Source: Candidatus Colwellbacteria bacterium (lineage in GTDB: Bacteria > Patescibacteriota > Minisyncoccia > UBA6257 > Colwellbacteraceae). Taken from it: a stretch of 64,000 nucleotides of DNA. Both the position numbers and the translations under genes were made by a program. Within the stretch, counting starts at the first letter, position 1; each line of letters opens with the position of its first letter. Location: the NCBI GenBank assembly GCA_016176525.1, contig JACOWZ010000003.1, positions 128,001 to 192,000 on the forward strand, in the 5' to 3' direction. Positions 4,662 through 56,489 of this stretch are shown piece after piece. The notes under the pieces were generated by a model. That model had not been told where the DNA came from. It did no database searches and worked only from the letters and a program-made list of their open reading frames with translations.

Positions 4662-4682
4662 GGGGTTTATTATAGCACGCGC

Positions 4683-6746
4683 CTAAACGTCTGTCTGCCG
4701 CCGTATTTTTTTGATAATATCTTTAGTAATTTGGTCTCTAGCTTTAGTTCGCTCTTCTGTGATTTTTTGCGCTGCCTTTTTACGCTCTGCTTTAAATATC
4801 TTTTCTTTCTCGGCTCTAAGTTTCGCTTGATCGCGCACTTCATCTTCAGCAAGTATTGCCCGCGTTTTTGTGCGTTCTACACGAAGAGCCGCAGACGCCT
4901 TTGCGCGTTCTTTTGCAACCGCAGATGCAACACGGATTTTCGCCGCATGCACTGCCTCATGCGCCCTCTCGCGTACACTCCTTAAAAGTTTTTCTGTTTT
5001 TCGTGCGCGTGCGAGTGCAGCCTTTGCTCTTTCTTTCTCTGCTTTAATTTCGCCTTCGGCCTTGCTCTTTACAGCTTTTAGGCGCGCTTCTTCTAACTTC
5101 TTGTGAGCAGCTATACGCTTTGCTTTTTGATTCTTTAGGCGGGTTAATTCCAGTTTAACTTTTGCGAGCTCTTTTAAGATATCTCTTTCTTTCTTTTTCT
5201 CTTCCATTAAAGCGAATTTGGTTGCTTTATTTACTCCGCTTAGTTTGATTTTTTTCTTTAGCGCAGCAATTTTTGTCTTGGCTCTCTCTTTTTGGCTTGC
5301 AATCAACTTTGACTCTTTCTCTAGCGTTTTAATCGCCTCCCTCGCGCGCTCGCGCGCATCTCTAATCGCGGCTTTTGCTTTATGCCTTGCCTCTGCAATA
5401 CTTTTTTGCTTTTCTTTGGTTTTTTCCGCGAGAAGTTTTTTAACCCTTTCATGCTCTTTTGCAAGCGCAAGTTCCGCCTCTTCTTTCTCTTTCTCTGCCT
5501 GCTCGGCAGCTTTTTTAGCTTCAATAAGCGAAGAGTCGCGCAGGTCGCGCTCAACATGCGTAGATTCGGCAAGTTTTTCTTCTGCAGAAAGCGCTGCCGC
5601 TTCCGCTTTTCTCTTCTCTTCAAATATTGCCTCTTCTGCATCTTTCTTTAGTTTTGCAAGCGTCTCTTCTGCGCGCCTTCTTTCGTCTGCGAGCGCGGTT
5701 TCTGCGCGTTCGCGTTCAATTGCAAGCTTTTCTTCAGCTACCTTTTTCTCAACAAGCGCCGCCTCTGCCATTTGCTTTGCACGCTCTGCCTCCTCTGCTT
5801 TCTTTTTAGCCTCCACTAGGGCCTTGCGAGCTTTTTCTATCTCTGCAGCCGCGGCTTTGGATTTTTTCTTCTCGCGTAAAAGCGCTTCTTGAAGTTTAAC
5901 CTTTTCCCCAAGCACTTCTTCGGTCGAAGTTGCCTTTACCGCTTTCTCCTCTGCGCGCTTTTTCTCAATGGCAATAGAAGCAGTAGTTCTTTTTCTCTCT
6001 TCAACAAGCGCCGCTTCAGCCCGTCTGCGCTCTTCTTTAAGGGCTTCTTCTGCGCGCTTATGCTCTTTTTCAAGCGCTTCTTCTTTGCGCTTAGCTTCTT
6101 CTTCTATTTTTTTGTGTTCTACTTCTCTCTCTGCTTCTGCTCTCTCGCGCTCTTTTGCTGAAGCCTCGGCCGCCCTTGCCCTCTCGGCTTCATGTGCTGC
6201 TTCTCTCTTTCTTCTCTCTTCTGCAAGCGCCTTTGCTGCATGCTTTCGCTCTGCATCAAGTGCTTCGCGAGCTTGGGCCTTTTCTTTTTCGTGCGCAGCT
6301 TCTTCCTCTTTATGGCGTTTTACCTCTAGCGCAGTTTTCGCATCTTCAATATCGGCAGTAGTTGGCAGCTGCACCCCGGCGCGCTCCATTATTTCACTAG
6401 CTTTCTCTACAACTTCTTTCAACGGATGGCTAGCTTTAACAAAATAATCCACAGCGCCCAACCGCAAGGCGCGTTTAATATCTTCATCGTTGCCGAGGTT
6501 TGAGAGCATTATTACATCGGCTTTCTTAAGCTCGTTGTCTCTTTTTAGTTCTTGTAAAACTTCAAAACCGTCTTTTATCGGCAACAGAATATCCAGCAAT
6601 ATAACATCTGGCAAAAAACGCCTTGCAATATCTACAGCCTCGCCGCCATTTTGCGCAATTTCAGCCTCAAAACCACTTGTTATAAATTTATCGCGTAAAG
6701 CTTCGGCGAGCGCAACCTCATCTTCTACAATAAGAACTTTCGCCAT
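4683..6746 (-). CDS. Response-regulator receiver domain fused to a ~550-aa highly charged E/K/R/A-rich helical (coiled-coil or single alpha-helix) region
   Basis: N-terminal 125 aa is a CheY-like receiver (VEDE...LLDILLP). The rest is low-complexity AEEKR repeats. Long + strand S/A/F-rich ORFs are mirror-image artifacts. Confidence 0.75.
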   Translation of the reverse strand: MAKVLIVEDEVALAEALRDKFITSGFEAEIAQNGGEAVDIARRFLPDVILLDILLPIKDGFEVLQELKRDNELKKADVIMLSNLGNDEDIKRALRLGAVDYFVKASHPLKEVVEKASEIMERAGVQLPTTADIEDAKTALEVKRHKEEEAAHEKEKAQAREALDAERKHAAKALAEERRKREAAHEAERARAAEASAKERERAEAEREVEHKKIEEEAKRKEEALEKEHKRAEEALKEERRRAEAALVEERKRTTASIAIEKKRAEEKAVKATSTEEVLGEKVKLQEALLREKKKSKAAAAEIEKARKALVEAKKKAEEAERAKQMAEAALVEKKVAEEKLAIERERAETALADERRRAEETLAKLKKDAEEAIFEEKRKAEAAALSAEEKLAESTHVERDLRDSSLIEAKKAAEQAEKEKEEAELALAKEHERVKKLLAEKTKEKQKSIAEARHKAKAAIRDARERAREAIKTLEKESKLIASQKERAKTKIAALKKKIKLSGVNKATKFALMEEKKKERDILKELAKVKLELTRLKNQKAKRIAAHKKLEEARLKAVKSKAEGEIKAEKERAKAALARARKTEKLLRSVRERAHEAVHAAKIRVASAVAKERAKASAALRVERTKTRAILAEDEVRDQAKLRAEKEKIFKAERKKAAQKITEERTKARDQITKDIIKKIRRQTDV

Positions 6747-13133: not shown

Positions 13134-13166
13134 ATTATTATAGATTATAGCACATCTATTTTAGTT

Positions 13167-36009: not shown

Positions 36010-36017
36010 AAATCTGA

Positions 36018-36656
36018 TTATACCATTCGCAGAAGCCGATTTAACAGAAAATCACTAAACAAAAATATGCCCAAAATTCCGAAAATCACTTTGCTAAAAT
36101 GCCATATTGGCAAAATTGATACAACCCATAATAACTCTATAGAAATTAGAGCAGTTGCCGCAGGCAAGATCTTGTTTTTTTCATTGCCTAAAATCCAGAA
36201 AAATTCTTTTGATAAGAAAAACACAGCTATAAACAAACCTATTTGTGCAAATATGCTAGAACCTAAACGAATATAAAAATAAAGTGCGCTAAGCGAGCCA
36301 ATGCCGGCGGCATATACAATATAATACAAAACATCTCGCCTTAAAAAGACCAGGTTTTTTACTCCCACTAATAGAGAAAACGCTGCTGCATAAAATACGG
36401 CTATAAAGCCCGATACAAAGCCAGAAATAAACTTTGGGAATAGGATTAGTGAGATAGTAAGCACAAAAAAAGAAGTCAGAAATTTTTGCAAATCCATCGG
36501 GGGCCTAAAATAGAACCACAAAAGCGCACCGGCAAGGAATATCATCCAAAAACCTGATTCCAGACGAGTGTAATATATAATTAAGGCTAGTGTTAGCGCT
36601 TTAAGCGCCAACCTTAACTCCTGATTTTTCCAGACTAATTTTAACTTTTCCGCCAT
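36018..36656 (-). CDS. Hypothetical polytopic membrane protein (start may be the internal Met near 36545)
   Basis: Hydrophobic throughout. The track's start overlaps the clpB 3' end. Confidence 0.45.
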   Translation of the reverse strand: MAEKLKLVWKNQELRLALKALTLALIIYYTRLESGFWMIFLAGALLWFYFRPPMDLQKFLTSFFVLTISLILFPKFISGFVSGFIAVFYAAAFSLLVGVKNLVFLRRDVLYYIVYAAGIGSLSALYFYIRLGSSIFAQIGLFIAVFFLSKEFFWILGNEKNKILPAATALISIELLWVVSILPIWHFSKVIFGILGIFLFSDFLLNRLLRMV

Positions 36657-48306: not shown

Positions 48307-48642
48307 ATAAGGCCAGAAGATAATTACTCCGACTATTGCGGCACCAACACTCGCCAAAAGCACAATAAAGGCCATTATATCTTTTACTTCCTTGATAGTT
48401 TGATGGTGCTCCATTTGAATAAAATCCATAATACGCTCAATAACAGAATTAATAAGCTCTAAAGCCAAAAGCATAAAAATCGTAACTATTAAGATTAGTT
48501 TTTCTATTGTTGTAGTCGGAAAATAAACCATTGCCGCTATAACTAATCCGGCTACAACAACAAATATTCTGAAATTTTTCTCATACATGAGCGCATCCTT
48601 TAGGCCATCTAATGCATATTTAATACTTTTAAGAATTCTCAT
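48298..48642 (-). CDS. dgkA: Diacylglycerol/undecaprenol kinase (DgkA family)
   Basis: ELINSVIE motif, three TM helices. Confidence 0.75.
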
Positions 48643-49456
48643 TTAATTTGTAGAAATTTTCAAAGAGTTTTGACACAAGTATAGGGCCTGTTCCGCCGGG
48701 GGTTGGAGTGTAGAAATTAGTTTTAAGTTCTAAGTTCTTAGTTTTAAGTTTCGGCGGAGAAAAATCTCCGAGCATCTTACCATTATGGAAAGAATAGCCG
48801 AAGTCAATAACGCTTGCTCCAGGTTTTAGCATCTCCGGCATAATTATCCCCGCCTTGCCAACGCCGGAGATTACAACATCTGCATCTTTAATATCTTTAA
48901 TATCTCTTTTGGAATCTATAACAATTACCTCTTTTGCCACGCCTAGTAACCAAGTTGCCACTGGCCTGCCAATTAAAAAACCGAACCCAACAACAGCTAC
49001 GATTGAATGCTGCCAGTCAATTTTATAGAGCTTGGCTAGTTCTTCCACAACCCCAATAGCAGGCGGTAAAACTTTGCTTTTCCCAACATAAAACATACCA
49101 AGTGCGTCTCTGCCTAGAACATCAACGTCTTTCTCTTCCGGAACAGCGGTCAAAACCATATGCTTATTAATCTTCTCTGGCAGTGGAAGCTGAATTACTA
49201 TGCCGCCGACATCGTTACTTGCACCCAGACTTGAAACCTCGCTTATTAATTCGTCTTCTGGAATATCAGAGGCAAAATTCATCACCCGGAAAGAAAGGCC
49301 CAACGATTTGGCCACGTTTTCTTTTTCTTTAATAAAATTAAGTGAAATTGGGTAAGTTCCAACTTGGACCACCACAAGTTTTTTGTCTATCGGCACCCGC
49401 TTTTTAAGTTTTGATATTAGCTTTTTAGAAATCTCTTGGCCGGAAACTGCTTGCAT
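48629..49456 (-). CDS. folD: Methylenetetrahydrofolate dehydrogenase/cyclohydrolase FolD
   Basis: VIQLPLP and TPGGTGP motifs. Confidence 0.85.
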   Translation of the reverse strand: MQAVSGQEISKKLISKLKKRVPIDKKLVVVQVGTYPISLNFIKEKENVAKSLGLSFRVMNFASDIPEDELISEVSSLGASNDVGGIVIQLPLPEKINKHMVLTAVPEEKDVDVLGRDALGMFYVGKSKVLPPAIGVVEELAKLYKIDWQHSIVAVVGFGFLIGRPVATWLLGVAKEVIVIDSKRDIKDIKDADVVISGVGKAGIIMPEMLKPGASVIDFGYSFHNGKMLGDFSPPKLKTKNLELKTNFYTPTPGGTGPILVSKLFENFYKLNENS

Positions 49457-50634
49457 AATTTTACAACTCTCGCTTTTATATCTCGACCTAACAGAGCTTG
49501 GTAAATAAAGAATGCTAAAATTTTCATTTCACGTTCTTTCATGCCGCGCGATGTTATAGAAGGTGTGCCAAGCCTTACACCAGACGGCTTAAACGGTGAT
49601 GGATCACCCGGCACGGTGTTGCGGTTGGCAATAATGCCCGATTTTTCTAATCTATTTTGCGCCTCCATACCATCTATTCCTAAGTTTCTAACATCCAACA
49701 AAAGCAAGTGGCTGTCTGTGCCTCCGCTAACAAGCTGGATGCCAAATTGTTTTAACTCTTTTGCAAGCGCACGAGCATTTTTTATAATCTGCGCCGCATA
49801 TTTCTTAAACGGCCTCTGCATAGCCTCGTAGAGCGCAACCGCAATGCCTGCGGTCGTATTGTTGTGCGGCCCGCCCTGCAGACCCGGGAAAACCGCTTTA
49901 TCAATTTTTTCTGAAAGTTCTTTTTTGGAAAATATCATGGCGCCTCGCGGCCCGCGAAGAGTTTTGTGCGTGGTAGTTGTTACAACATCTGCGTATGGAA
50001 ATGGCGTTGGATACACTCCACCGGCAATCAAGCCCGCAATGTGGGCCATATCTACCATATGGTATGCGCCTACTTCGTCGGCAATAGCCTTAAATTTTTT
50101 AAAATCAATTTTGCGAGGGTATGCGCTAAAGCCCGAGATTATAATTTTAGGCTTGTGTTTGTGCGCTAAACGCTTAACTTCTTTGTAGTCAACAATGCCT
50201 TCGCCATCTACGCCATACTGCACCGCCTTCCAATGTTTGCCGGTTATAGAAACTTTGTGCCCGTGGGTTAAGTGCCCGCCAGAAGAGAGTTTTAGCCCCA
50301 TCAACGTATCACCGGGCTCTAAAAGCGCGAAATAAACCGCAAGGTTTGCAGGCGAACCAGAAAGCGGCTGAACATTAACGCTCCACTTTTTAGGATTAAG
50401 TTTAAAAAGCTTAAGTGCGCGCTTACGGGCGAGGTTCTCTACCATGTCGCAATAAACGTTCCCGGGGTAATAACGCTTGCCCGGGTAGCCTTCGGAATAT
50501 TTGTTTGTGAAGGGCGATCCCAGCGCTTCTAAAATATCGTGCGATGCAAAATTCTCGGAGGCTATAAGGTCTAAAGTCTCTGTCTGCCTTTTTGATTCTT
50601 TCTTTATTAAATTAGAAATAGCCTTATCTTTCAT
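49417..50634 (-). CDS. glyA: Serine hydroxymethyltransferase
   Basis: LIASENF, HLTHGH and the PLP lysine region TTTTHKTLRGPRG. Confidence 0.9.
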   Translation of the reverse strand: MKDKAISNLIKKESKRQTETLDLIASENFASHDILEALGSPFTNKYSEGYPGKRYYPGNVYCDMVENLARKRALKLFKLNPKKWSVNVQPLSGSPANLAVYFALLEPGDTLMGLKLSSGGHLTHGHKVSITGKHWKAVQYGVDGEGIVDYKEVKRLAHKHKPKIIISGFSAYPRKIDFKKFKAIADEVGAYHMVDMAHIAGLIAGGVYPTPFPYADVVTTTTHKTLRGPRGAMIFSKKELSEKIDKAVFPGLQGGPHNNTTAGIAVALYEAMQRPFKKYAAQIIKNARALAKELKQFGIQLVSGGTDSHLLLLDVRNLGIDGMEAQNRLEKSGIIANRNTVPGDPSPFKPSGVRLGTPSITSRGMKEREMKILAFFIYQALLGRDIKARVVKLCKQFPAKRFLKS

Positions 50635-50667
50635 AGGCTAGATTATAGCATAATTCACACCCTTGAC

Positions 50668-50696
50668 TTGACATAAAGTTTGTTGTGTGCTATACT
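50668..50696 (+). promoter_or_regulatory. Near-consensus sigma70 promoter (TTGACA, 17-nt spacer, TATACT)
   Basis: Seen in sequence. No annotated gene downstream except tiny ORFs. Confidence 0.55.
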
Positions 50697-50744
50697 TACC
50701 AAAGGACGATAAGGTATCGTCCATACAGTACCCCAAGGAGGGAT

Positions 50745-50780
50745 ATGAAGTGGAGAACAAGCAAGCACAACGTGGGATGA
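50745..50780 (+). CDS. Tiny ORF (11 aa, MKWRTSKHNVG) behind a strong Shine-Dalgarno AAGGAGG
   Basis: Hand translation. SD 3-4 nt upstream. Overlaps the next small ORF by ATGA. Confidence 0.25.
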   Translation: MKWRTSKHNVG

Positions 50781-50854
50781 CTATGGAGGAAACGAGACAG
50801 AGACTGAAAGATTTGGGCTTCCCATACTGGAAGAAGCCACAACCATCTGACTAA
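50777..50854 (+). CDS. Small ORF (25 aa, MTMEETRQRLKDLGFPYWKKPQPSD)
   Basis: Hand translation. Sits between the promoter and the terminator. Confidence 0.25.
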   Translation: MTMEETRQRLKDLGFPYWKKPQPSD

Positions 50855-50865
50855 CCTCTCTACCC

Positions 50866-50898
50866 AACCCTACCAGGCGAGCCGCAATTGCGACTCGC
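50866..50898 (+). terminator. Intrinsic terminator GGCGAG..CTCGCC then TCTTTTTTT
   Basis: Stem with palindromic loop plus T7. Confidence 0.65.
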
Positions 50899-50906
50899 CT
50901 CTTTTT

Positions 50907-51572
50907 TTACCACGGCATCCGTTCACTCTTAAACCAAAAACCGCCAGTTTCCGGGTTTGAAAACGCGAATTTATAAATATCGTCGGCGACCTCCTTGCAT
51001 GTATATGTCGCTTCCATTCCGCCAATGTCAGTTTGCACCCAACCCGGGTGCACAGAAGAAACAACAATACCTTTAAGTCTCTTAGAAAGAGTGGCCGTGT
51101 ACATATTAAGCGCGGCTTTAGACATTTTATAACTCGGGTAATACCCGGGGAAGTGGCTCTCGCCTTTTATTGTTTTATCCAACGAGCCTGCCCGCGAAGT
51201 TATATTTATTATGTGCCCGCCGCGCGCTATAAGCGGAATAAGCCGTTCGGTAAAATCAATGGTTCCGATAAGATTTACTTCCAATGTCGCTCTTAATTTT
51301 TCCACAATTACTGTAGCGTCATATTCGTCTAAAAGCACGCCGGCGTTGTTTATAAGAATATCTATTTTCTTACCTAGACTCTTAATTTTATCTACACAAT
51401 CGCTAATACTTTGCGGATTATTTAGATCTAACGACAGCGCAACCAAATTCTCGTCTTTAAAATCTATAGACTTATGGTATGTTCCGATTACAAAATCGCC
51501 TTCTTTCAAAAATTTTTCTGCAAGGGCTTTGCCAATACCTTTGTCTATGCCGGTTATTACAACAACGCGCAT
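50907..51572 (-). CDS. Short-chain dehydrogenase/reductase (SDR)
   Basis: TGIDKGIG cofactor motif, NAG, YxxxK (YPSYKMSK). Confidence 0.8.
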   Translation of the reverse strand: MRVVVITGIDKGIGKALAEKFLKEGDFVIGTYHKSIDFKDENLVALSLDLNNPQSISDCVDKIKSLGKKIDILINNAGVLLDEYDATVIVEKLRATLEVNLIGTIDFTERLIPLIARGGHIINITSRAGSLDKTIKGESHFPGYYPSYKMSKAALNMYTATLSKRLKGIVVSSVHPGWVQTDIGGMEATYTCKEVADDIYKFAFSNPETGGFWFKSERMPW

Positions 51573-51616
51573 AGAGAAAGTATATCAAATGGGTCGGATT
51601 GTGGAGAATATTAGAA

Positions 51617-52156
51617 CTATATTTGCTTCTCTTTCTTATCAGTCGTAACACGCCCTCCCTGCCATTGCCCCCGATACTTACTCCCACCGCCATCTACTCT
51701 ATAAAACTGCGCATGCACAATTCTAGCTCCTAATTCCAACGTCACAGGCACAGGACCTTCGTTCTTCAGTGCAAACGTAAAGTTACCTTTATATCCAGGC
51801 GCAGCATTCCCCATTCGTATATAGAGACCGCTTCTATATGTTGTTGAGCGCGGCTCAAGATTAACAGTGATGTCTTTCGGGAGATTCACTTCTTCTATGG
51901 TTGTAATTAAATAAAAATCACCTGGATTGATAGTAAATTTTTCACGAACCCCCTTTTTATATGAAGCAACTAACTTGGTTTTAGGAGTCTCCCGATAATC
52001 TATCCCTAAAAATGCTTCACCCTCAATGGAATAAATTTCTTTTAATCTCAAATCGAACCCCGCGCCCTCTGGGTTTGTCAACTCACGCTCACTCAAATTT
52101 TTAACAAGTCCCTTTTCCTTTACTAATCTTAATAACTCATCTGTGCCGATAATCAT
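51617..52156 (-). CDS. dcd: dCTP deaminase-like (dUTPase superfamily)
   Basis: AGFDLRL, PRSTTYRSGL, jelly-roll pattern. Confidence 0.6.
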   Translation of the reverse strand: MIIGTDELLRLVKEKGLVKNLSERELTNPEGAGFDLRLKEIYSIEGEAFLGIDYRETPKTKLVASYKKGVREKFTINPGDFYLITTIEEVNLPKDITVNLEPRSTTYRSGLYIRMGNAAPGYKGNFTFALKNEGPVPVTLELGARIVHAQFYRVDGGGSKYRGQWQGGRVTTDKKEKQI

Positions 52157-52185
52157 AAAAGAATTATATCAAACCCGACATTAGT

Positions 52186-52734
52186 TTAACTTATCAGTTT
52201 CCTTGCTCGCAGAGCAGAAAACAGTTTATTATATTCATCTTTATGTGGGACGAAAACAGATTTCTTATCGCAGTCCTTTAGTAACTCATCTAAACTAACG
52301 AACTTAACTTTCTGCACTTCTTCTTTTTGTAGTTTTAGTTTAGATAAGTCCAGGTCTTTTCTAACTAAGAAAATATCGTGAAACTCCCTTTCAATATATG
52401 TTCCGTTGTTTAATACTACATCGGTGGTAGTTACAAAAAGGTGTTCGAACTCATTCTTGCTTAACTTAATCCCAAGTTCTTCCTTGGCTTCCCTTATACC
52501 CCCTTCAATTGATGTCTCACCAGTAAATATATGCCCCGCAGCTGAGATATCCCATAGATCAGGGTAATTGACTTTTATTTTAGACCTTTTTTGGACAAGA
52601 ATCTTACCGTCAGAATTAATAATCCAAATATGCGTGCTTTTATGCCAGTCTCCATCCTTATGAACGTTGTCCCTTAGTTTACTTTCTCCAGTTGGATTGC
52701 CTAGTTCGTCCAATATATCTATGTATTCCATCAC
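52186..52734 (-). CDS. Nudix hydrolase
   Basis: Nudix box GETSIEGGIREAKEELGI. Confidence 0.8.
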   Translation of the reverse strand: MMEYIDILDELGNPTGESKLRDNVHKDGDWHKSTHIWIINSDGKILVQKRSKIKVNYPDLWDISAAGHIFTGETSIEGGIREAKEELGIKLSKNEFEHLFVTTTDVVLNNGTYIEREFHDIFLVRKDLDLSKLKLQKEEVQKVKFVSLDELLKDCDKKSVFVPHKDEYNKLFSALRARKLIS

Positions 52735-52860
52735 AAAATACTACCAAAGCTGGCATAAAAAATCACACGACCAAAAACTTTTCTAAAATCTTTAATAGTA
52801 GGTCGGAACCATTATAGCAAGGCAGGATGGGTATATTTATGTGCCTGACCTTGGAAATAT

Positions 52861-53403
52861 TTAGTCGGCGTTATTTGTTAAATCGTAAGTAAATAATTGT
52901 ACGGGTATCCCTTTCTGATGTGCCTTTTCAACGGTATCTTCTGTCCCTAAACTCTCACTCATTTCAGTTTTAACTCGGAACGCGACTAACTCATCTGAAG
53001 CATTTACCACCTTTGCGTTCCTTTCATAGTATCTTGCTTTTTTGTTTTCCTCATTAAAATCTGTATCTGGATTTTCCATAAGACTACTTGAATTTGTGTT
53101 CTTTAATTTATTGAGTTGGTTTATTAAGTTCTCTGCCTGTTCTTTTGTGATATTTCCTAAGCTAGCGTGCTTGCGATAATGTTCTGAATATTTCTCTAAT
53201 GTTGTAGGTAAAAAAATTCTAATTTGAGTTGCTTCTGGATTATGTTTAAGTGCTTCATCGGTTGCTATAAAGTCAACTCCCAATGCACCGCCAGAGACAA
53301 CACCATCTCCTCTTTGAATAATGTCCTTAACTATTCCTCTTAATTTCTCTTCAATTTCTTGGTTAATTTTTCTCCAACTGCCACTAATTCCAATCCATTT
53401 CAT
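52861..53403 (-). CDS. SLOG-superfamily DprA-like Rossmann domain protein (standalone)
   Basis: VVSGGALGVDFIATDEAL resembles DprA GxARGID..AH..AL. ...ERNAKVVNASDELVAF...GT.DTVEKAHQKGIPV resembles the DprA C-terminal strand/helix pattern. Confidence 0.5.
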   Translation of the reverse strand: MKWIGISGSWRKINQEIEEKLRGIVKDIIQRGDGVVSGGALGVDFIATDEALKHNPEATQIRIFLPTTLEKYSEHYRKHASLGNITKEQAENLINQLNKLKNTNSSSLMENPDTDFNEENKKARYYERNAKVVNASDELVAFRVKTEMSESLGTEDTVEKAHQKGIPVQLFTYDLTNNAD

Positions 53404-53448
53404 AGTTAAAATTATATCACCCCGCCCCGCTGCTCACTATTTCTGTAT

Positions 53449-53859
53449 CTACTTTTTTAGAAATGCTATCAACTCTTCTGGGTCTTCAAACACTTTGGTA
53501 TAAATTGACTCGATCCAATCTTGAACTTTCTGGCCAAAATCAAGCAATCTCGGAGTCCGAACTCCATAAAGCGGCTTGCCGATACCATTGGCGTAGCCAC
53601 TCTCTGCATATATTCCGGGAGTGTTGCCCATCAGCACAATAACACCCTTTGCATCTTTAATGAGTTGAAACTCCTTTTCTCTCAGCCAAGCTCCGCTTTT
53701 TTTCTGTGGCAAATCTCTAAAAGCAACCACTATTTTCAAACCAGAGCTCTCTAATTTCTTCACGACGCTCTCCCAACCTTTATGCATCTCCTCATCCCAA
53801 ACCAGTTTACTGCCATTCCAAGAATAAAGTGGAGTGCATAGAAAATAATAATCCTTCAT
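53449..53859 (-). CDS. Nucleoside 2-deoxyribosyltransferase-like protein (SLOG superfamily)
   Basis: YFLCTP...VIVLMGNTPGIYAESGYANGIGKPLYG matches the NDT family core. Confidence 0.6.
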   Translation of the reverse strand: MKDYYFLCTPLYSWNGSKLVWDEEMHKGWESVVKKLESSGLKIVVAFRDLPQKKSGAWLREKEFQLIKDAKGVIVLMGNTPGIYAESGYANGIGKPLYGVRTPRLLDFGQKVQDWIESIYTKVFEDPEELIAFLKK

Positions 53860-53896
53860 AAATTAAATTTTACTACAGTTCTAATGTCATCTACTT

Positions 53897-53970
53897 TGGG
53901 TGCCTAACGGGAGTCGAACCCGTATCAAAAGCTCCACAAGCTTCTGTGTTGCCGCTACACCATAGGCACC
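53897..53970 (-). tRNA. tRNA-His (anticodon GUG) with G-1
   Basis: Hand fold: loop TTGTGGA, extra 5' G pairing C73. Confidence 0.6.
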
Positions 53971-54042
53971 ATAAAAACCCTAAAAACTATACCTACCTTT
54001 CCGGATTTTGCCAAGTAAACAGGTTTATAGTAGGATGACTAT

Positions 54043-54423
54043 ATGAGAGAAAAAATTAAGTTCCCCACAGAGGGCGAAAACAAAAAAGAGGAAGAGATTA
54101 AGATAAATCCAAAAAATCCAGAAGACAAAAAGCTTATGGAAAACGCTGATAAGCTTATTAAGGAAGCTGAAGCCGAGCAAGAGGTTCTAAATGAAATATT
54201 AGAGTTAGATCCAAAAACACGAGTTGATGATGCCGAGAGCCTTGTTACAGAAAGGTGGGCTAAGGGTTTGTATAAACAACTAGGCGGTAATGTAAAAGAT
54301 TTTAGCTGGGAGAATTTTAAGAAGACTTGGAAAAAAGTTAAAAAAGAAGCTCCGGAAAGACGAAAAGTATTGGCAGATCTGCGAAAAAACGTAGACGAAA
54401 CCAGCTGGAAATCTTATACATAA
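54043..54423 (+). CDS. Hypothetical charged protein (126 aa)
   Basis: ORF followed by a strong terminator. Confidence 0.45.
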   Translation: MREKIKFPTEGENKKEEEIKINPKNPEDKKLMENADKLIKEAEAEQEVLNEILELDPKTRVDDAESLVTERWAKGLYKQLGGNVKDFSWENFKKTWKKVKKEAPERRKVLADLRKNVDETSWKSYT

Positions 54424-54430
54424 GCACAAT

Positions 54431-54460
54431 AAAAAAATCCCCGGAGGGGGATTTTTTTAT
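54431..54460. terminator. Bidirectional intrinsic terminator (AAAAAAATCCCC gga GGGGGATTTTTTT)
   Basis: Seen in sequence. Serves the + strand ORF and minus-strand tRNA-Phe. Confidence 0.7.
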
Positions 54461-54462
54461 TG

Positions 54463-54534
54463 TGCCGCGGGGGTGAATCGAACACCCGACGCCAGCCTCT
54501 TCAGGGCTGCGCTCTACCACTGAGCTACCACGGC
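54463..54534 (-). tRNA. tRNA-Phe (anticodon GAA)
   Basis: Hand fold: GCCGTGGTAGCTCAGTGGTAGAGC..., loop CTGAAGA. Confidence 0.7.
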
Positions 54535-54611
54535 ATTTAAAGAATATAAACATCTTAAACTTTAAGTTTTAAAATTGCAATTAGAAAAAACACAATGTAT
54601 TCTCTCTGTAA

Positions 54612-54686
54612 GCCCCTGTCGTTCAATGGATAGGACGGAGGTTTCCTAAACCTCAAATCCAAGTTCGATTCTTGGTGGGGGCACCA
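54612..54686 (+). tRNA. tRNA-Arg (anticodon CCU), CCA encoded
   Basis: Hand fold: loop TTCCTAA. Arms near-identical to tRNA-Arg at 15192. Confidence 0.7.
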
Positions 54687-54691
54687 GAATT

Positions 54692-55639
54692 TTACCTAAG
54701 CGCTCCTTCAATTTGAAGTTCCCGCTTTGATAGGTAGAAGAAAAGCCCCACAACCAGAAATGTTATTAGCGGCGCCGTTAAGGATGATATATGTATTCCC
54801 AAGCTTTCACCTGTCATTATAAGCCCCAGAAATCCCACAGAATACATCGCTCCATTCTTAAGATAACGGTATTTCTTCACGGTTTTAATGCCATGGATGG
54901 TGAACCACCTTACAACAAAAGCGCCTAGCCCGTTTCCGAGAAGTATTAGCGGCACCGATATAGTAAATGCGAAAGCGCCAAGCACACCGTCAATTGAAAA
55001 AGTTGTGTCAATAACTTCCAAATACATAATTTTGCTTACGTCAGAAAAGTGGGCGTGCTTAAGCTCTCTTTCTTTCTGCTCTGCATTCTCTTTAAAGCCA
55101 GTGGTTATGAAAAACGCGGTTGAGCCGATAACTGCACCTAGCGCGATGAGTGGATTTATATAAATTGTTGTCCACACAACTGTAAGAAGTATTATTGATG
55201 CAAGAGCATAGAACCAAAACGAGTAATTCTTGTGTATGTGTTTTTCTAAAAAAAATGCATACTCTTTTGTTTGTAAGAAAAGCCAGTGTAGAAACAAAAA
55301 TATAAGATATATTCCCCCTCCGGCCAAAAGTATGGGCTTAGACCGCTCGATACTCTCCATTACTGCCGGGTCGGAACTGAACATTGCGGTAAATGCGCCC
55401 CAAATCCCCAAAGATGGGTTCGCTGCATAAACTATGGCAAGAGGCAAAAGGCCGCGAACAACTACAACCGCTATTATTATTCCATATAAAAGAAACCAGC
55501 GCCTCGCACGCTCCGACATAGTGGACAGTACATCTGCGTTGATTACCGCGTTGTCAACGCTTGAAATTGTTTCAAAGAGAACAAGCCCGACAACAATCAA
55601 TATAATCTCTAAAATGTCCATTGTAGGAGTATTAAACAA
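54692..55639 (-). CDS. TerC/DUF475-like integral membrane protein (two internal repeats)
   Basis: Repeats ETISSVDNAVI and EVIDTTFSIDGVLGAFA. Many TM helices. Confidence 0.5.
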   Translation of the reverse strand: MFNTPTMDILEIILIVVGLVLFETISSVDNAVINADVLSTMSERARRWFLLYGIIIAVVVVRGLLPLAIVYAANPSLGIWGAFTAMFSSDPAVMESIERSKPILLAGGGIYLIFLFLHWLFLQTKEYAFFLEKHIHKNYSFWFYALASIILLTVVWTTIYINPLIALGAVIGSTAFFITTGFKENAEQKERELKHAHFSDVSKIMYLEVIDTTFSIDGVLGAFAFTISVPLILLGNGLGAFVVRWFTIHGIKTVKKYRYLKNGAMYSVGFLGLIMTGESLGIHISSLTAPLITFLVVGLFFYLSKRELQIEGALR

Positions 55640-55685
55640 TAATTATACAAAATAGAAAATTTGTTTTAAACTTCTAAAAGTTTAT

Positions 55686-55757
55686 GCTCCTGTAGTTCAA
55701 TGGACAGAACAGAAGGTTTCTAACCTTTTAATGGGGGTTCGATTCCCTCCGGGAGCA
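55686..55757 (+). tRNA. tRNA-Arg (anticodon UCU)
   Basis: Hand fold: D-stem GTTC/GAAC, loop TTTCTAA. Confidence 0.65.
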
Positions 55758-55764
55758 CAAGCTA

Positions 55765-55835
55765 CGGGCTGTCGTATAATGGCAGTATACGTGTTTTGGG
55801 AACACGCGGCCTGGGTTCGATTCCCAGCAGCCCGA
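55765..55835 (+). tRNA. tRNA-Pro (anticodon UGG)
   Basis: Hand fold: loop TTTGGGA. Arms near-identical to tRNA-Pro at 13167. Confidence 0.6.
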
Positions 55836-55888
55836 CAAAAATAAAATATCTCGAGCGAGCAGTGAGAAGCGCAGCGTCCCAGCAGACC

Positions 55889-55915
55889 GACCAAAAGCGA
55901 AACCCCCTATTCGGG
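55889..55915. terminator. Bidirectional terminator GCGAAACCCCC tatt CGGGGGTTTCGC
   Basis: 11-bp perfect stem followed by an A/T-rich run. Confidence 0.65.
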
Positions 55916-55933
55916 GGTTTCGCATATAAATTT

Positions 55934-56332
55934 TTACATCTGACCTCCTTGTCGCGAAGGTGGGGTCTGCATTGGCATAGCTCCACTTTTTCTGCCTGCA
56001 AAACCTGCCCACAAAAGGACAACTGCTACAACAAGCTGCAACCAACTTGAGGCCGCGTTTGTAGCGACTAGCCCCAAAATTTTACCGTCTTGCGCAAAGA
56101 ATCCTAAAACTGCCAAAATCACGTAAATTACGCCCAAGGCCTTAAGGTACATCGCACCGGACGCGCCGCCTTTAGCAGCCCACAAAACCACGATGCCTGT
56201 GGCAAGAAGCAGTATTCCATGTGTGGCGTCTGCCGCGAAAAATGCTCCTTCTCCAACTATCGGGTTGCCTATAAAACTAAGAAGCCCCAAAAGCGCAAGT
56301 ATAGCGCCTGTTGCCATTACTACATTCTTCAT
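55934..56332 (-). CDS. Hypothetical small membrane protein (4 TM)
   Basis: Hydrophobic helices. Confidence 0.45.
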   Translation of the reverse strand: MKNVVMATGAILALLGLLSFIGNPIVGEGAFFAADATHGILLLATGIVVLWAAKGGASGAMYLKALGVIYVILAVLGFFAQDGKILGLVATNAASSWLQLVVAVVLLWAGFAGRKSGAMPMQTPPSRQGGQM

Positions 56333-56416
56333 GATGATTGAATTGTTAAAAGAAGTAATAAATCGACCTTTACATTGTAAATTATAACAAATTAGGTAAA
56401 ATCAAAACTATTGCTA

Positions 56417-56487
56417 CCCCCCATAGCTTAGTGGTAAAGCTACGGACTCTTAATCCGCAGATCAAGGTTCGATTCCTTGTGGGGGGA
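56417..56487 (+). tRNA. tRNA-Lys (anticodon CUU) with unusual C1:G72 acceptor end
   Basis: Hand fold: GACTCTTAATC anticodon arm, T-loop TTCGATT, acceptor CCCCCCA/TGGGGGG. Confidence 0.55.
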
Positions 56488-56489
56488 CA

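Follow-up and report, generated by a model that had tools for sequence, protein, structure and literature searches.

Four consecutive minus-strand genes, all related to nucleotide metabolism, lie side by side in the genome of a Candidatus Colwellbacteria bacterium and raise the question of whether they form a dedicated system or are merely neighbours. They are found in a stretch of 64,000 nucleotides (contig JACOWZ010000003.1, positions 128,001 to 192,000), hereafter the window, whose first letter is position 1 of all coordinates given below. The genes encode a protein of the NDT/DNPH1 fold (53449–53859, 136 aa; NDT, nucleoside deoxyribosyltransferase), a standalone SLOG domain of the DprA/YpsA/ShosA-like kind (52861–53403, 180 aa), a Nudix hydrolase (52186–52734, 182 aa), and a protein of the DCD/dUTPase superfamily (51617–52156, 179 aa; DCD, dCTP deaminase). 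An earlier note had proposed that this block, followed by a short-chain dehydrogenase/reductase (SDR) gene, could be a conflict or signalling module, with deoxynucleotide salvage in an auxotrophic organism as a fallback. The coordinates of the four genes and of the SDR gene were confirmed in the list of open reading frames (ORFs), and the domain types by Pfam and structural models: Pfam matched DCD (2.2e-23), NUDIX (4.2e-15; 56.4 bits against a gathering score of 21.1), and, in part, DNA_processg_A for the SLOG protein (2.4e-8), while the match of the NDT-like protein to Nuc_deoxyrib_tr (27.3 bits) fell below the gathering score of 28.8. In the most probable reading, genes of nucleotide housekeeping, salvage and sanitation that were inherited independently, and that appear to be transcribed separately, have come to lie side by side in this lineage and do not form a dedicated multi-gene system. 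The four genes are read as ordinary salvage and clean-up genes because they were never found together in the other genomes examined and because they look separately transcribed.

The linkage of the genes was evaluated with family hidden Markov models (HMMs; E ≤ 0.01) at 171 loci, comprising 81 SLOG-anchored, 83 DCD-anchored, and 7 NDT-anchored loci, and at none of them did the SLOG, DCD-like and NDT-like families co-occur. With SLOG as the anchor, phmmer searches of 77 loci from species-representative genomes, spread across Patescibacteria and including some Pacearchaeota, Pseudanabaena and others, found no NDT-like, DCD-like or orthologous Nudix neighbour. Clustering of all ORFs near the SLOG genes gave no family present in more than 8 of 75 loci, the top clusters being antisense artefacts or generic genes, and even around the closest SLOG relatives (77% and 71% identity) the genes are different throughout. 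With the DCD-like gene as the anchor, a Nudix match was present in one of 80 metagenome loci, and SLOG or NDT-like matches in none. The four NDT-like relatives that were looked up lie in four different contexts, the partner genes not being adjacent. SDR matches occurred near SLOG anchors in 2 of the 77 loci and near no DCD anchor. Moreover, the family sizes lie orders of magnitude apart (4333 DCD-like, 370 SLOG, and 14 NDT-like matches), a disparity that a module inherited as a unit would hardly show. A neighbourhood conserved among relatives was thus not found across the 171 loci, which is one of the two outcomes that the earlier note itself had named as speaking against its proposal.

Were the block a conflict or signalling system centred on nucleotides, the SLOG protein would sense or process a signal, the Nudix and NDT-like proteins would make, degrade or deplete nucleotides, and the DCD-like protein would deplete dCTP or dUTP. 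A sensor function is known for the SLOG domains of Thoeris and related systems (PMC6459960, PMC11204291), PADLOC returned weak domain-level matches of the SLOG protein to ShosA (4.5e-7, 27.4 bits) and PsyrA (1.1e-6) and of the Nudix protein to PDC-S07 (4.2e-7), and SLOG–Nudix proximity is enriched across genomes, as described below. However, searches of the block with PADLOC and Pfam detected no phosphoribosyltransferase (PRTase), PsyrT helicase, TIR, SIR2, macro or other effector, and membership in Shosta, PsyrTA or Thoeris was rejected, the weak PADLOC matches being without partner genes. PHROGs gave generic matches only. On viral contigs the SLOG family had two distant relatives and the NDT-like family none, and a phage origin was dropped because the families are almost absent from such contigs. 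The same scarcity argues against a conflict system, as do the unconserved adjacencies, the separate promoter-like elements, and a DCD-like protein that belongs to a thymidylate operon and has neither the deaminase Glu nor a kinase fusion. Furthermore, the surroundings (recA, folD, glyA, tRNAs, TerC, and recG) are of a housekeeping kind, with no defence island. The suggestion of a conflict or signalling module therefore found no support, with linkage unconserved and the Shosta, PsyrTA and Thoeris partners absent; the lack of conservation already goes most of the way towards refuting it, and we regard it as very improbable. As a candidate system of this kind the four-gene block fails and is not to be carried forward. 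A literature search found no paper on these families of the Candidate Phyla Radiation (CPR).

Signals in the DNA suggested that the genes may be transcribed one by one. The window contains 14 copies of the extended −10 motif TGNTATAAT, where 2.9 were expected (about five-fold enrichment), and none of 100 shuffles reached this count. On the minus strand, one such element (TGATATAAT, 53411–53419) lies 7 nt upstream of the SLOG start codon, another (TGCTATAAT, 52811–52819) within the 126-bp spacer between the SLOG and Nudix genes, and a third (TGATATAAT, 52163–52171) 6 nt upstream of the DCD-like start codon; glyA has its own element (TGCTATAAT, 50642–50650). Other minus-strand TGNTATAAT sites in the window include those at 2865–2873, 4669–4677, 13144–13152, and 36017–36025. 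Because most copies precede a start codon by 6–10 nt, as at glyA and at the DCD-like and SLOG genes, the pattern suggests leaderless, gene-by-gene promoters that would be widespread in this genome. In addition, the 126-bp spacer folds somewhat more stably than shuffled sequences (z = −2.1); a hairpin closely follows the SLOG stop codon, and a U-run is present. An Rfam search of 50500–54700 returned tRNAs only and no riboswitch in this spacer, and a simple scan detected no minus-strand terminator.

The DCD-like gene has a strongly conserved context elsewhere, a thymidylate neighbourhood of the form dcd-tmk-X-thyA-folA. Its product missed both NCBIfam equivalog cut-offs, that for dCTP deaminase (TIGR02274; 83.9 bits against 92.8) and that for DCD-type dUTPase (NF002598; 63.9 against 130). 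Family members are 65–72% identical across Patescibacteria and Aenigmarchaeota and share the invariant motif GN(V/A)APGYxGxLTFALKNEG, at which position solved dCTP deaminases carry VDPGF..ITLEL and short entries labelled as dCTP deaminases of about 155 aa carry VDPGW..LTLML. The family reads TFALKN where 4xjc has TLELFN, the deaminase Glu ('TLE') being replaced by Ala, and it has a further Ala ('VAPGY') where 9ln0, 8y1w, and 9w59 have Asp and 3km3 has Glu (motif III, 'DPGW', 'IDxDY'). Between Colwellbacteria and DPANN archaea (Aenigmarchaeota proteins P0173 and P0205), the protein is about 66% identical.

Among the 80 DCD-anchored metagenome loci, thyA lies directly downstream of the DCD-like gene in 60 and folA, encoding dihydrofolate reductase, in 43; Tmk lies directly upstream in 28, and about 25 have, further upstream, a canonical dcd whose Glu is retained (ITLELANMG). 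In 13 of the loci glyA was present 3–5 kb downstream, and folC recurs too. The identities of these neighbours were confirmed by Pfam, and the context is the same for the closest relatives. Directly upstream and on the same strand, 25 of the 80 loci (25 of L082–L161; examples are L093, 3701–4483, and L172, 4086–4871) encode a conserved protein, about 260 aa long and unmatched in Pfam, which thereby belongs to the thymidylate neighbourhood of CPR genomes. The position immediately before the DCD-like gene, filled by the Nudix gene in the window, is held elsewhere by Tmk, by the 260-aa protein, by a MazG-like protein (L097 and L120), or by a YfbR-like HD nucleotidase. The MazG-like gene of L097 (1065–1418) overlaps the DCD-like start (1415–1954) by 4 bp, as does the YfbR-like HD 5'-deoxynucleotidase gene of L171 (4414–5004, with the DCD-like gene at 5001–5543).

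Since canonical Dcd makes dUTP, ThyA needs dUMP, and the deaminase Glu has been lost, we infer that the DCD-like protein has a dUTPase-like role as a supplier of dUMP for thymidylate synthesis. As a dUTPase-type member of the thymidylate pathway of CPR bacteria and DPANN archaea, it would provide ThyA with dUMP by converting dUTP, whether made by canonical Dcd or of other origin. The thymidylate operon would have been broken up in this genome, with the DCD-like gene near glyA and folD and thyA 50 kb away; linkage to glyA is the only part of the conserved context that the window retains. More speculatively, members of the clade could hydrolyse dUTP by a non-canonical mechanism, or could regulate the thymidylate operon by binding deoxynucleoside triphosphates (dNTPs) without catalysis. 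A CPR/DPANN-wide clade occupies the dUTPase position of the thymidylate operon without either of the canonical acidic catalytic residues, and databases mislabel it as 'dCTP deaminase' or 'hypothetical'.

Proximity between SLOG and Nudix genes was then considered across the SLOG loci as a whole. A Nudix-box ORF lies within 2 kb of the SLOG gene in 9 of 75 loci (12%), always on the same strand and directly adjacent in three, and the far flank (528 kb) contained a single Nudix-box ORF (near versus far, binomial p = 4e-4). The Nudix proteins concerned represent at least five subfamilies, MTH1-like proteins among them, and none is orthologous to the Nudix protein of the window. Because of this spread, the proximity is read as a loose theme of nucleotide house-cleaning and not as a fixed two-gene system; it lends slight weight to a nucleotide-handling role for the SLOG protein. 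The idea that SLOG genes generally have MazG-like neighbours was dropped, such a gene being found in one of 75 loci and in L078, although one fusion exists. The varied Nudix genes near 12% of the SLOG loci and the MazG-like fusion suggested a bolder idea, in which the SLOG family is an uncharacterised nucleotide-processing enzyme or sensor acting downstream of NTP pyrophosphohydrolases and the SLOG–Nudix pair genuinely works as a module, treating non-canonical or modified nucleotides in two steps, the DCD-like protein being separately a non-canonical dUTPase or regulator. We consider this idea speculative and unlikely.

Several observations weigh against a mere juxtaposition. Four nucleotide-related genes in a row beside glyA and folD are somewhat above chance; the Nudix–DCD gap is only 29 bp; and read-through co-transcription is possible because no minus-strand terminator was detected. 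SLOG–Nudix proximity recurs modestly (the 9 of 75 loci, together with one MazG-like+SLOG fusion), so the adjacency in the window may be functionally meaningful. The dUTPase assignment, which forms part of the picture, is weakened by the loss of the acidic residue equivalent to that of motif III (Ala for Asp/Glu). Furthermore, the database relatives of all the proteins are at most 77% identical, so the comparison lies beyond the genus level. Some functional co-location among the four genes, such as shared regulation, may exist.

One form of such co-location would be a co-regulated, lineage-specific operon for salvage and sanitation, in which the Nudix protein converts surplus or non-canonical (d)NTPs or (d)NDPs to (d)NMPs, the NDT-like protein, the SLOG protein or both cleave the glycosidic bond so that base and sugar phosphate are recycled, and the DCD-like protein feeds in dUMP. 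All four proteins plausibly act on nucleotides, the gaps between the genes are 29–126 bp with no strong terminator, and the slot upstream of the DCD-like gene is held elsewhere by other nucleotide phosphohydrolases or kinases; the MazG-like+SLOG fusion and the presence of Nudix genes of several subfamilies, including MTH1-like ones, near SLOG genes point the same way. However, the arrangement was found in no second genome among the 171 loci, the genes have individual promoter-like elements, and a structured spacer with a U-run separates the SLOG and Nudix genes. An operon of this kind is accordingly judged unlikely. Independently inherited genes remain the preferred reading, and deoxynucleotide salvage in an auxotroph, the fallback of the earlier note, proved the better explanation of the block; this is clearest for the DCD-like gene, with its thyA-folA-tmk-dcd context elsewhere. 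What residual interest the locus holds for specialists lies in two of its families, the non-canonical DCD-like clade in the thymidylate operon of CPR bacteria and DPANN archaea and the small SLOG family mislabelled as DprA, both of which bear on the management of dNTP pools in ultra-small, nucleotide-auxotrophic cells.

The placement of the SLOG protein among LOG, DprA and YpsA was addressed with profiles and a structural model. Its DNA_processg_A match covers residues 4–59 only, corresponding to profile positions 47–101 of 212 (33.9 bits; gathering score 29.6), and against the DprA equivalog TIGR00732 it scored 30.1 bits with a cut-off of 191. No Pfam match to Lysine_decarbox/LOG (PF03641) was found at E ≤ 0.1, and there was no Pfam YpsA match, the cpYpsA profile giving 19 bits against a gathering score of 26.2. 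The AlphaFold2 model (mean predicted local distance difference test score, pLDDT, of 92) shows a Rossmannoid domain of five strands, into which two helices are inserted at residues 69–103. In a Foldseek search of the PDB, Helicobacter pylori DprA (4ljr) ranked first, with a template modelling (TM) score of 0.62, the DprA, YpsA and ShosA matches spanning 0.55–0.62; after DprA came YpsA, ShosA, TM1055, the SLOG domain of ThsA, and Moco carrier proteins, and LOG enzymes appeared from rank 25. Profile scores and predicted fold thus indicate a SLOG-superfamily domain nearest to DprA/YpsA and not to LOG. The DprA-like affinity put forward in the earlier note was in this respect borne out, and a grouping with housekeeping LOG enzymes, which the note had set as the contrary outcome, was not seen.

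The family itself is small, sharply bounded, and patchy. The homologue search yielded 370 matches, and among 1.84e9 proteins there were 473 representatives at E ≤ 1e-3 and 81 at E ≤ 1e-30. Members are 45–77% identical across CPR lineages, most are standalone proteins of about 170 aa, and their isoelectric points range from 5.2 to 9.6, showing that a net positive charge is not conserved. Beyond CPR bacteria the family is spread over DPANN archaea and a few cyanobacteria, occurring in Pacearchaeota (L032, L062) and Pseudanabaena (L067–L072) at 42–55% identity; by their sequence relationships, both the DCD-like and the SLOG families point to cross-domain sharing. Fusions were observed of SLOG to MazG-like NTP pyrophosphohydrolase, to ASCH, to methyltransferase (two), and to Mur ligase, the last (SLOG+Mur ligase) possibly a gene-call artefact (fusion proteins P0262, P0266, P0282, P0307, and P0257).

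A public record 100% identical to the SLOG protein (P0001), from a Candidatus Colwellbacteria metagenome-assembled genome, is named 'DNA-processing protein DprA'. Taken at face value, this name would make the protein a minimal DprA that loads RecA on incoming single-stranded DNA (ssDNA) during natural transformation and stands among nucleotide genes by chance. The best sequence and fold matches are indeed DprA Rossmann domains, the GGALGVD motif is common to the protein and H. pylori DprA, the NCBI name agrees, and recA lies 5 kb from the SLOG gene. Against it stand the TIGR00732 score far below cut-off with only about 55 residues aligned, a five-stranded core without SAM or winged-helix domains, and the wide range of isoelectric points. 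Moreover, 473 patchily distributed representatives are unlike a core transformation gene, and the fusion partners are MazG-like, ASCH and methyltransferase domains and not DNA-repair domains. A role as a minimal DprA is accordingly considered quite improbable. Since the DprA equivalog score was missed and the DprA architecture is absent, the label on P0001 is likely an annotation error that could propagate, and mislabelling of the family could inflate inferences on natural competence in Patescibacteria. The SLOG protein would rather bind or process a small nucleotide ligand than load RecA on ssDNA as DprA does.

The NDT-like protein was grouped by the earlier note with the SLOG superfamily, an assignment that the structural comparison did not support. 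SLOG was used here in the sense of SMF/DprA/LOG (PMC6459960). The AlphaFold2 model (pLDDT 83) matched NDT structures (7o62, TM score 0.70; 6evs, 0.66), MilB (0.63), DNPH1 (0.63), and BcmB, followed by TIR domains, with SLOG proteins absent among the Foldseek matches. Only the 180-aa protein is therefore counted as SLOG. The putative nucleophile Glu86 is present in 13 of 14 family members and aligns with the Glu of 'DDGVAFELGYA' in 7o62. Six residues before it, the family has an invariant Thr80 ('NTPGIYAE') where 7o62 has Asp and MilB Ser; the stretch 'TPGIYAE' aligns with 'SPGTHVE' of MilB. In transferases such as Lactobacillus leichmannii NDT, the Asp six residues before the nucleophile contacts the sugar hydroxyl, and in (d)NMP N-glycosidases of the DNPH1/MilB type a Ser or Thr at this place contacts the phosphate. 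Because Thr80 stands where transferases have Asp, the alignment favours a nucleotide N-glycosidase of the DNPH1/MilB type over a transferase. The family is tiny and Patescibacteria-specific, with 13 relatives (14 matches) in an index of 5.8 billion proteins. The protein may thus be a rare accessory N-glycosidase of DNPH1/MilB type that would free bases from deoxynucleoside monophosphates, or perhaps from nucleosides, for salvage or clean-up.

The Nudix protein carries a Nudix box (GHIFTGETSIEGGIREAKEELGI) that fits the strict pattern GX5EX7REUXEEXGU, and it is the only such ORF in the window. By sequence, the closest subgroup is type 1 isopentenyl diphosphate (IPP) isomerase (IDI) and Escherichia coli YfcD, with NCBIfam scores of 78.6 bits against 127 for IDI (NF002995), 47.6 against 105.8 for TIGR02150, and 62.7 against 152 for YfcD. 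In an alignment to IDI 3hyq, 'SAAGH' of the window protein stands opposite 'SVCGH', the catalytic Cys of IDI (E. coli Cys67) being replaced by Ala. IPP isomerase activity was rejected because this Cys is absent; with the full Nudix box kept, the protein is taken to be a hydrolase, and its alignments place it in an IDI/YfcD-like subgroup. It would act as a nucleoside di- or triphosphate pyrophosphatase.

The surroundings of the block were also inspected. Downstream on the minus strand lie the classical SDR gene (50907–51572, 221 aa; Pfam adh_short 5.2e-29) and the one-carbon genes glyA (49417–50634) and folD (48629–49456), both identified by Pfam. The thymidylate synthase gene thyA (1654–2481, minus) is in the same window, about 50 kb from the DCD-like gene. 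Of the context genes listed in the earlier note, folD, glyA and thyA were confirmed in the window; the plus-strand ORF at 53–463 (136 aa) belongs to the cytidine/deoxycytidylate deaminase family, a placement at family level that would fit a dCMP deaminase as well as a tRNA or nucleoside deaminase. A weak HIT/DcpS-like ORF (1205–1642, minus) adjoins thyA, with the deaminase-family ORF about 1.2 kb past its far end. Pfam also places DAGK and TerC close to the block.

Directly upstream of the NDT-like gene is a tRNA-His gene on the minus strand (53898–53969), preceded by a sigma-70-like site (54014–53986). It is the first of six tRNA genes (His, Phe, Arg-CCT, Arg-TCT, Pro-TGG, and Lys-CTT) lying on both strands within 2.6 kb (53898–56488). 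Divergent from the block is an ORF for a Lys/Glu-rich protein of 126 aa (54043–54423, plus), with no Pfam, PHROG or meaningful PADLOC match. The GC fraction is 0.35–0.36 in the SLOG and Nudix genes, 0.41–0.42 in the NDT-like and DCD-like genes, and 0.33 in the nearby DAGK gene. A genomic island, suggested by the adjoining tRNA-His gene and the low GC, was rejected because the GC heterogeneity is not confined to the block, and no integrase or repeats were found there in a search that was not exhaustive. By a rough estimate, the adjacency of four nucleotide-related genes is mildly non-random, but in a compact genome where genes run in one direction over long stretches, adjacency alone carries little weight.

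Comparison with characterised systems places each protein near known families and apart from them in definable features. In Shosta, a ShosA-like gene is paired with the ShosT PRTase toxin, whereas the neighbours in the block match neither ShosT nor any PRTase. PsyrTA requires a RecQ-like toxin, and none is present in the block. In Thoeris, the SLOG domain of ThsA is fused to a SIR2 or a transmembrane–macro effector and accompanied by a TIR gene (ThsB), whereas the SLOG domain here is standalone.

With DprA and ShosA, the SLOG protein shares the Rossmannoid core with its GGAxGxD loop, ShosA being both a structural match (8zva, TM score 0.57) and the best PADLOC match. ShosA, which is DprA-like, has a SAM domain and a nine-stranded Rossmann-fold domain (PMC11961720), and both DprA and ShosA bind ssDNA and RecA, for which a positive ssDNA-binding surface is required (PMC11961720, PMC12961424). 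The SLOG protein, in contrast, is a single domain of 180 aa with no SAM domain, C-terminal winged helix, or PRTase partner. Like YpsA of Bacillus subtilis (2nx2, TM score 0.55), it is standalone, about 180 aa long, and has a GxD/E signature (here G42-V-D44) in the predicted nucleotide-binding loop (PMC6459960); unlike YpsA, its family ranges over CPR and DPANN and not Firmicutes, and it does not have the gpsB neighbourhood reported for ypsA. LOG enzymes belong to the same superfamily, and the SLOG family has 'GLGTxDT' in place of their PGGxGTxxE; if the protein is enzymatic, N-glycosidase activity on nucleoside monophosphates would be plausible by analogy.

The NDT-like protein has the fold of NDT, DNPH1 (Rcl), MilB and BcmB (TM scores 0.63–0.70) and the nucleophile Glu in an 'xPGxxxExGYA' motif. 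It differs from transferases in having Thr for Asp, which brings it nearer to the Ser of MilB, and it marginally misses the gathering score of Pfam PF05014. Compared with type 1 IPP isomerase and YfcD, the Nudix protein retains the full Nudix box (REAKEELG) and misses the equivalog cut-offs.

Finally, the DCD-like protein has the fold and most of the motifs of Dcd, bifunctional Dcd:Dut, and archaeal DCD-type dUTPases, including GxDLRLG, PRS/TT..R.GL, RIxxxQF, and the C-terminal YRGxxQG. Its clade differs in having Ala both for the deaminase Glu and for the acidic residue of 'DPGF/W', and the lack of a kinase fusion together with that of the catalytic Glu argues against a dNTP-depleting effector. 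These proteins form a distinct clade common to CPR bacteria and DPANN archaea, and in other genomes their genes follow the classical dcd-dut-thyA-folA-tmk genomic logic.

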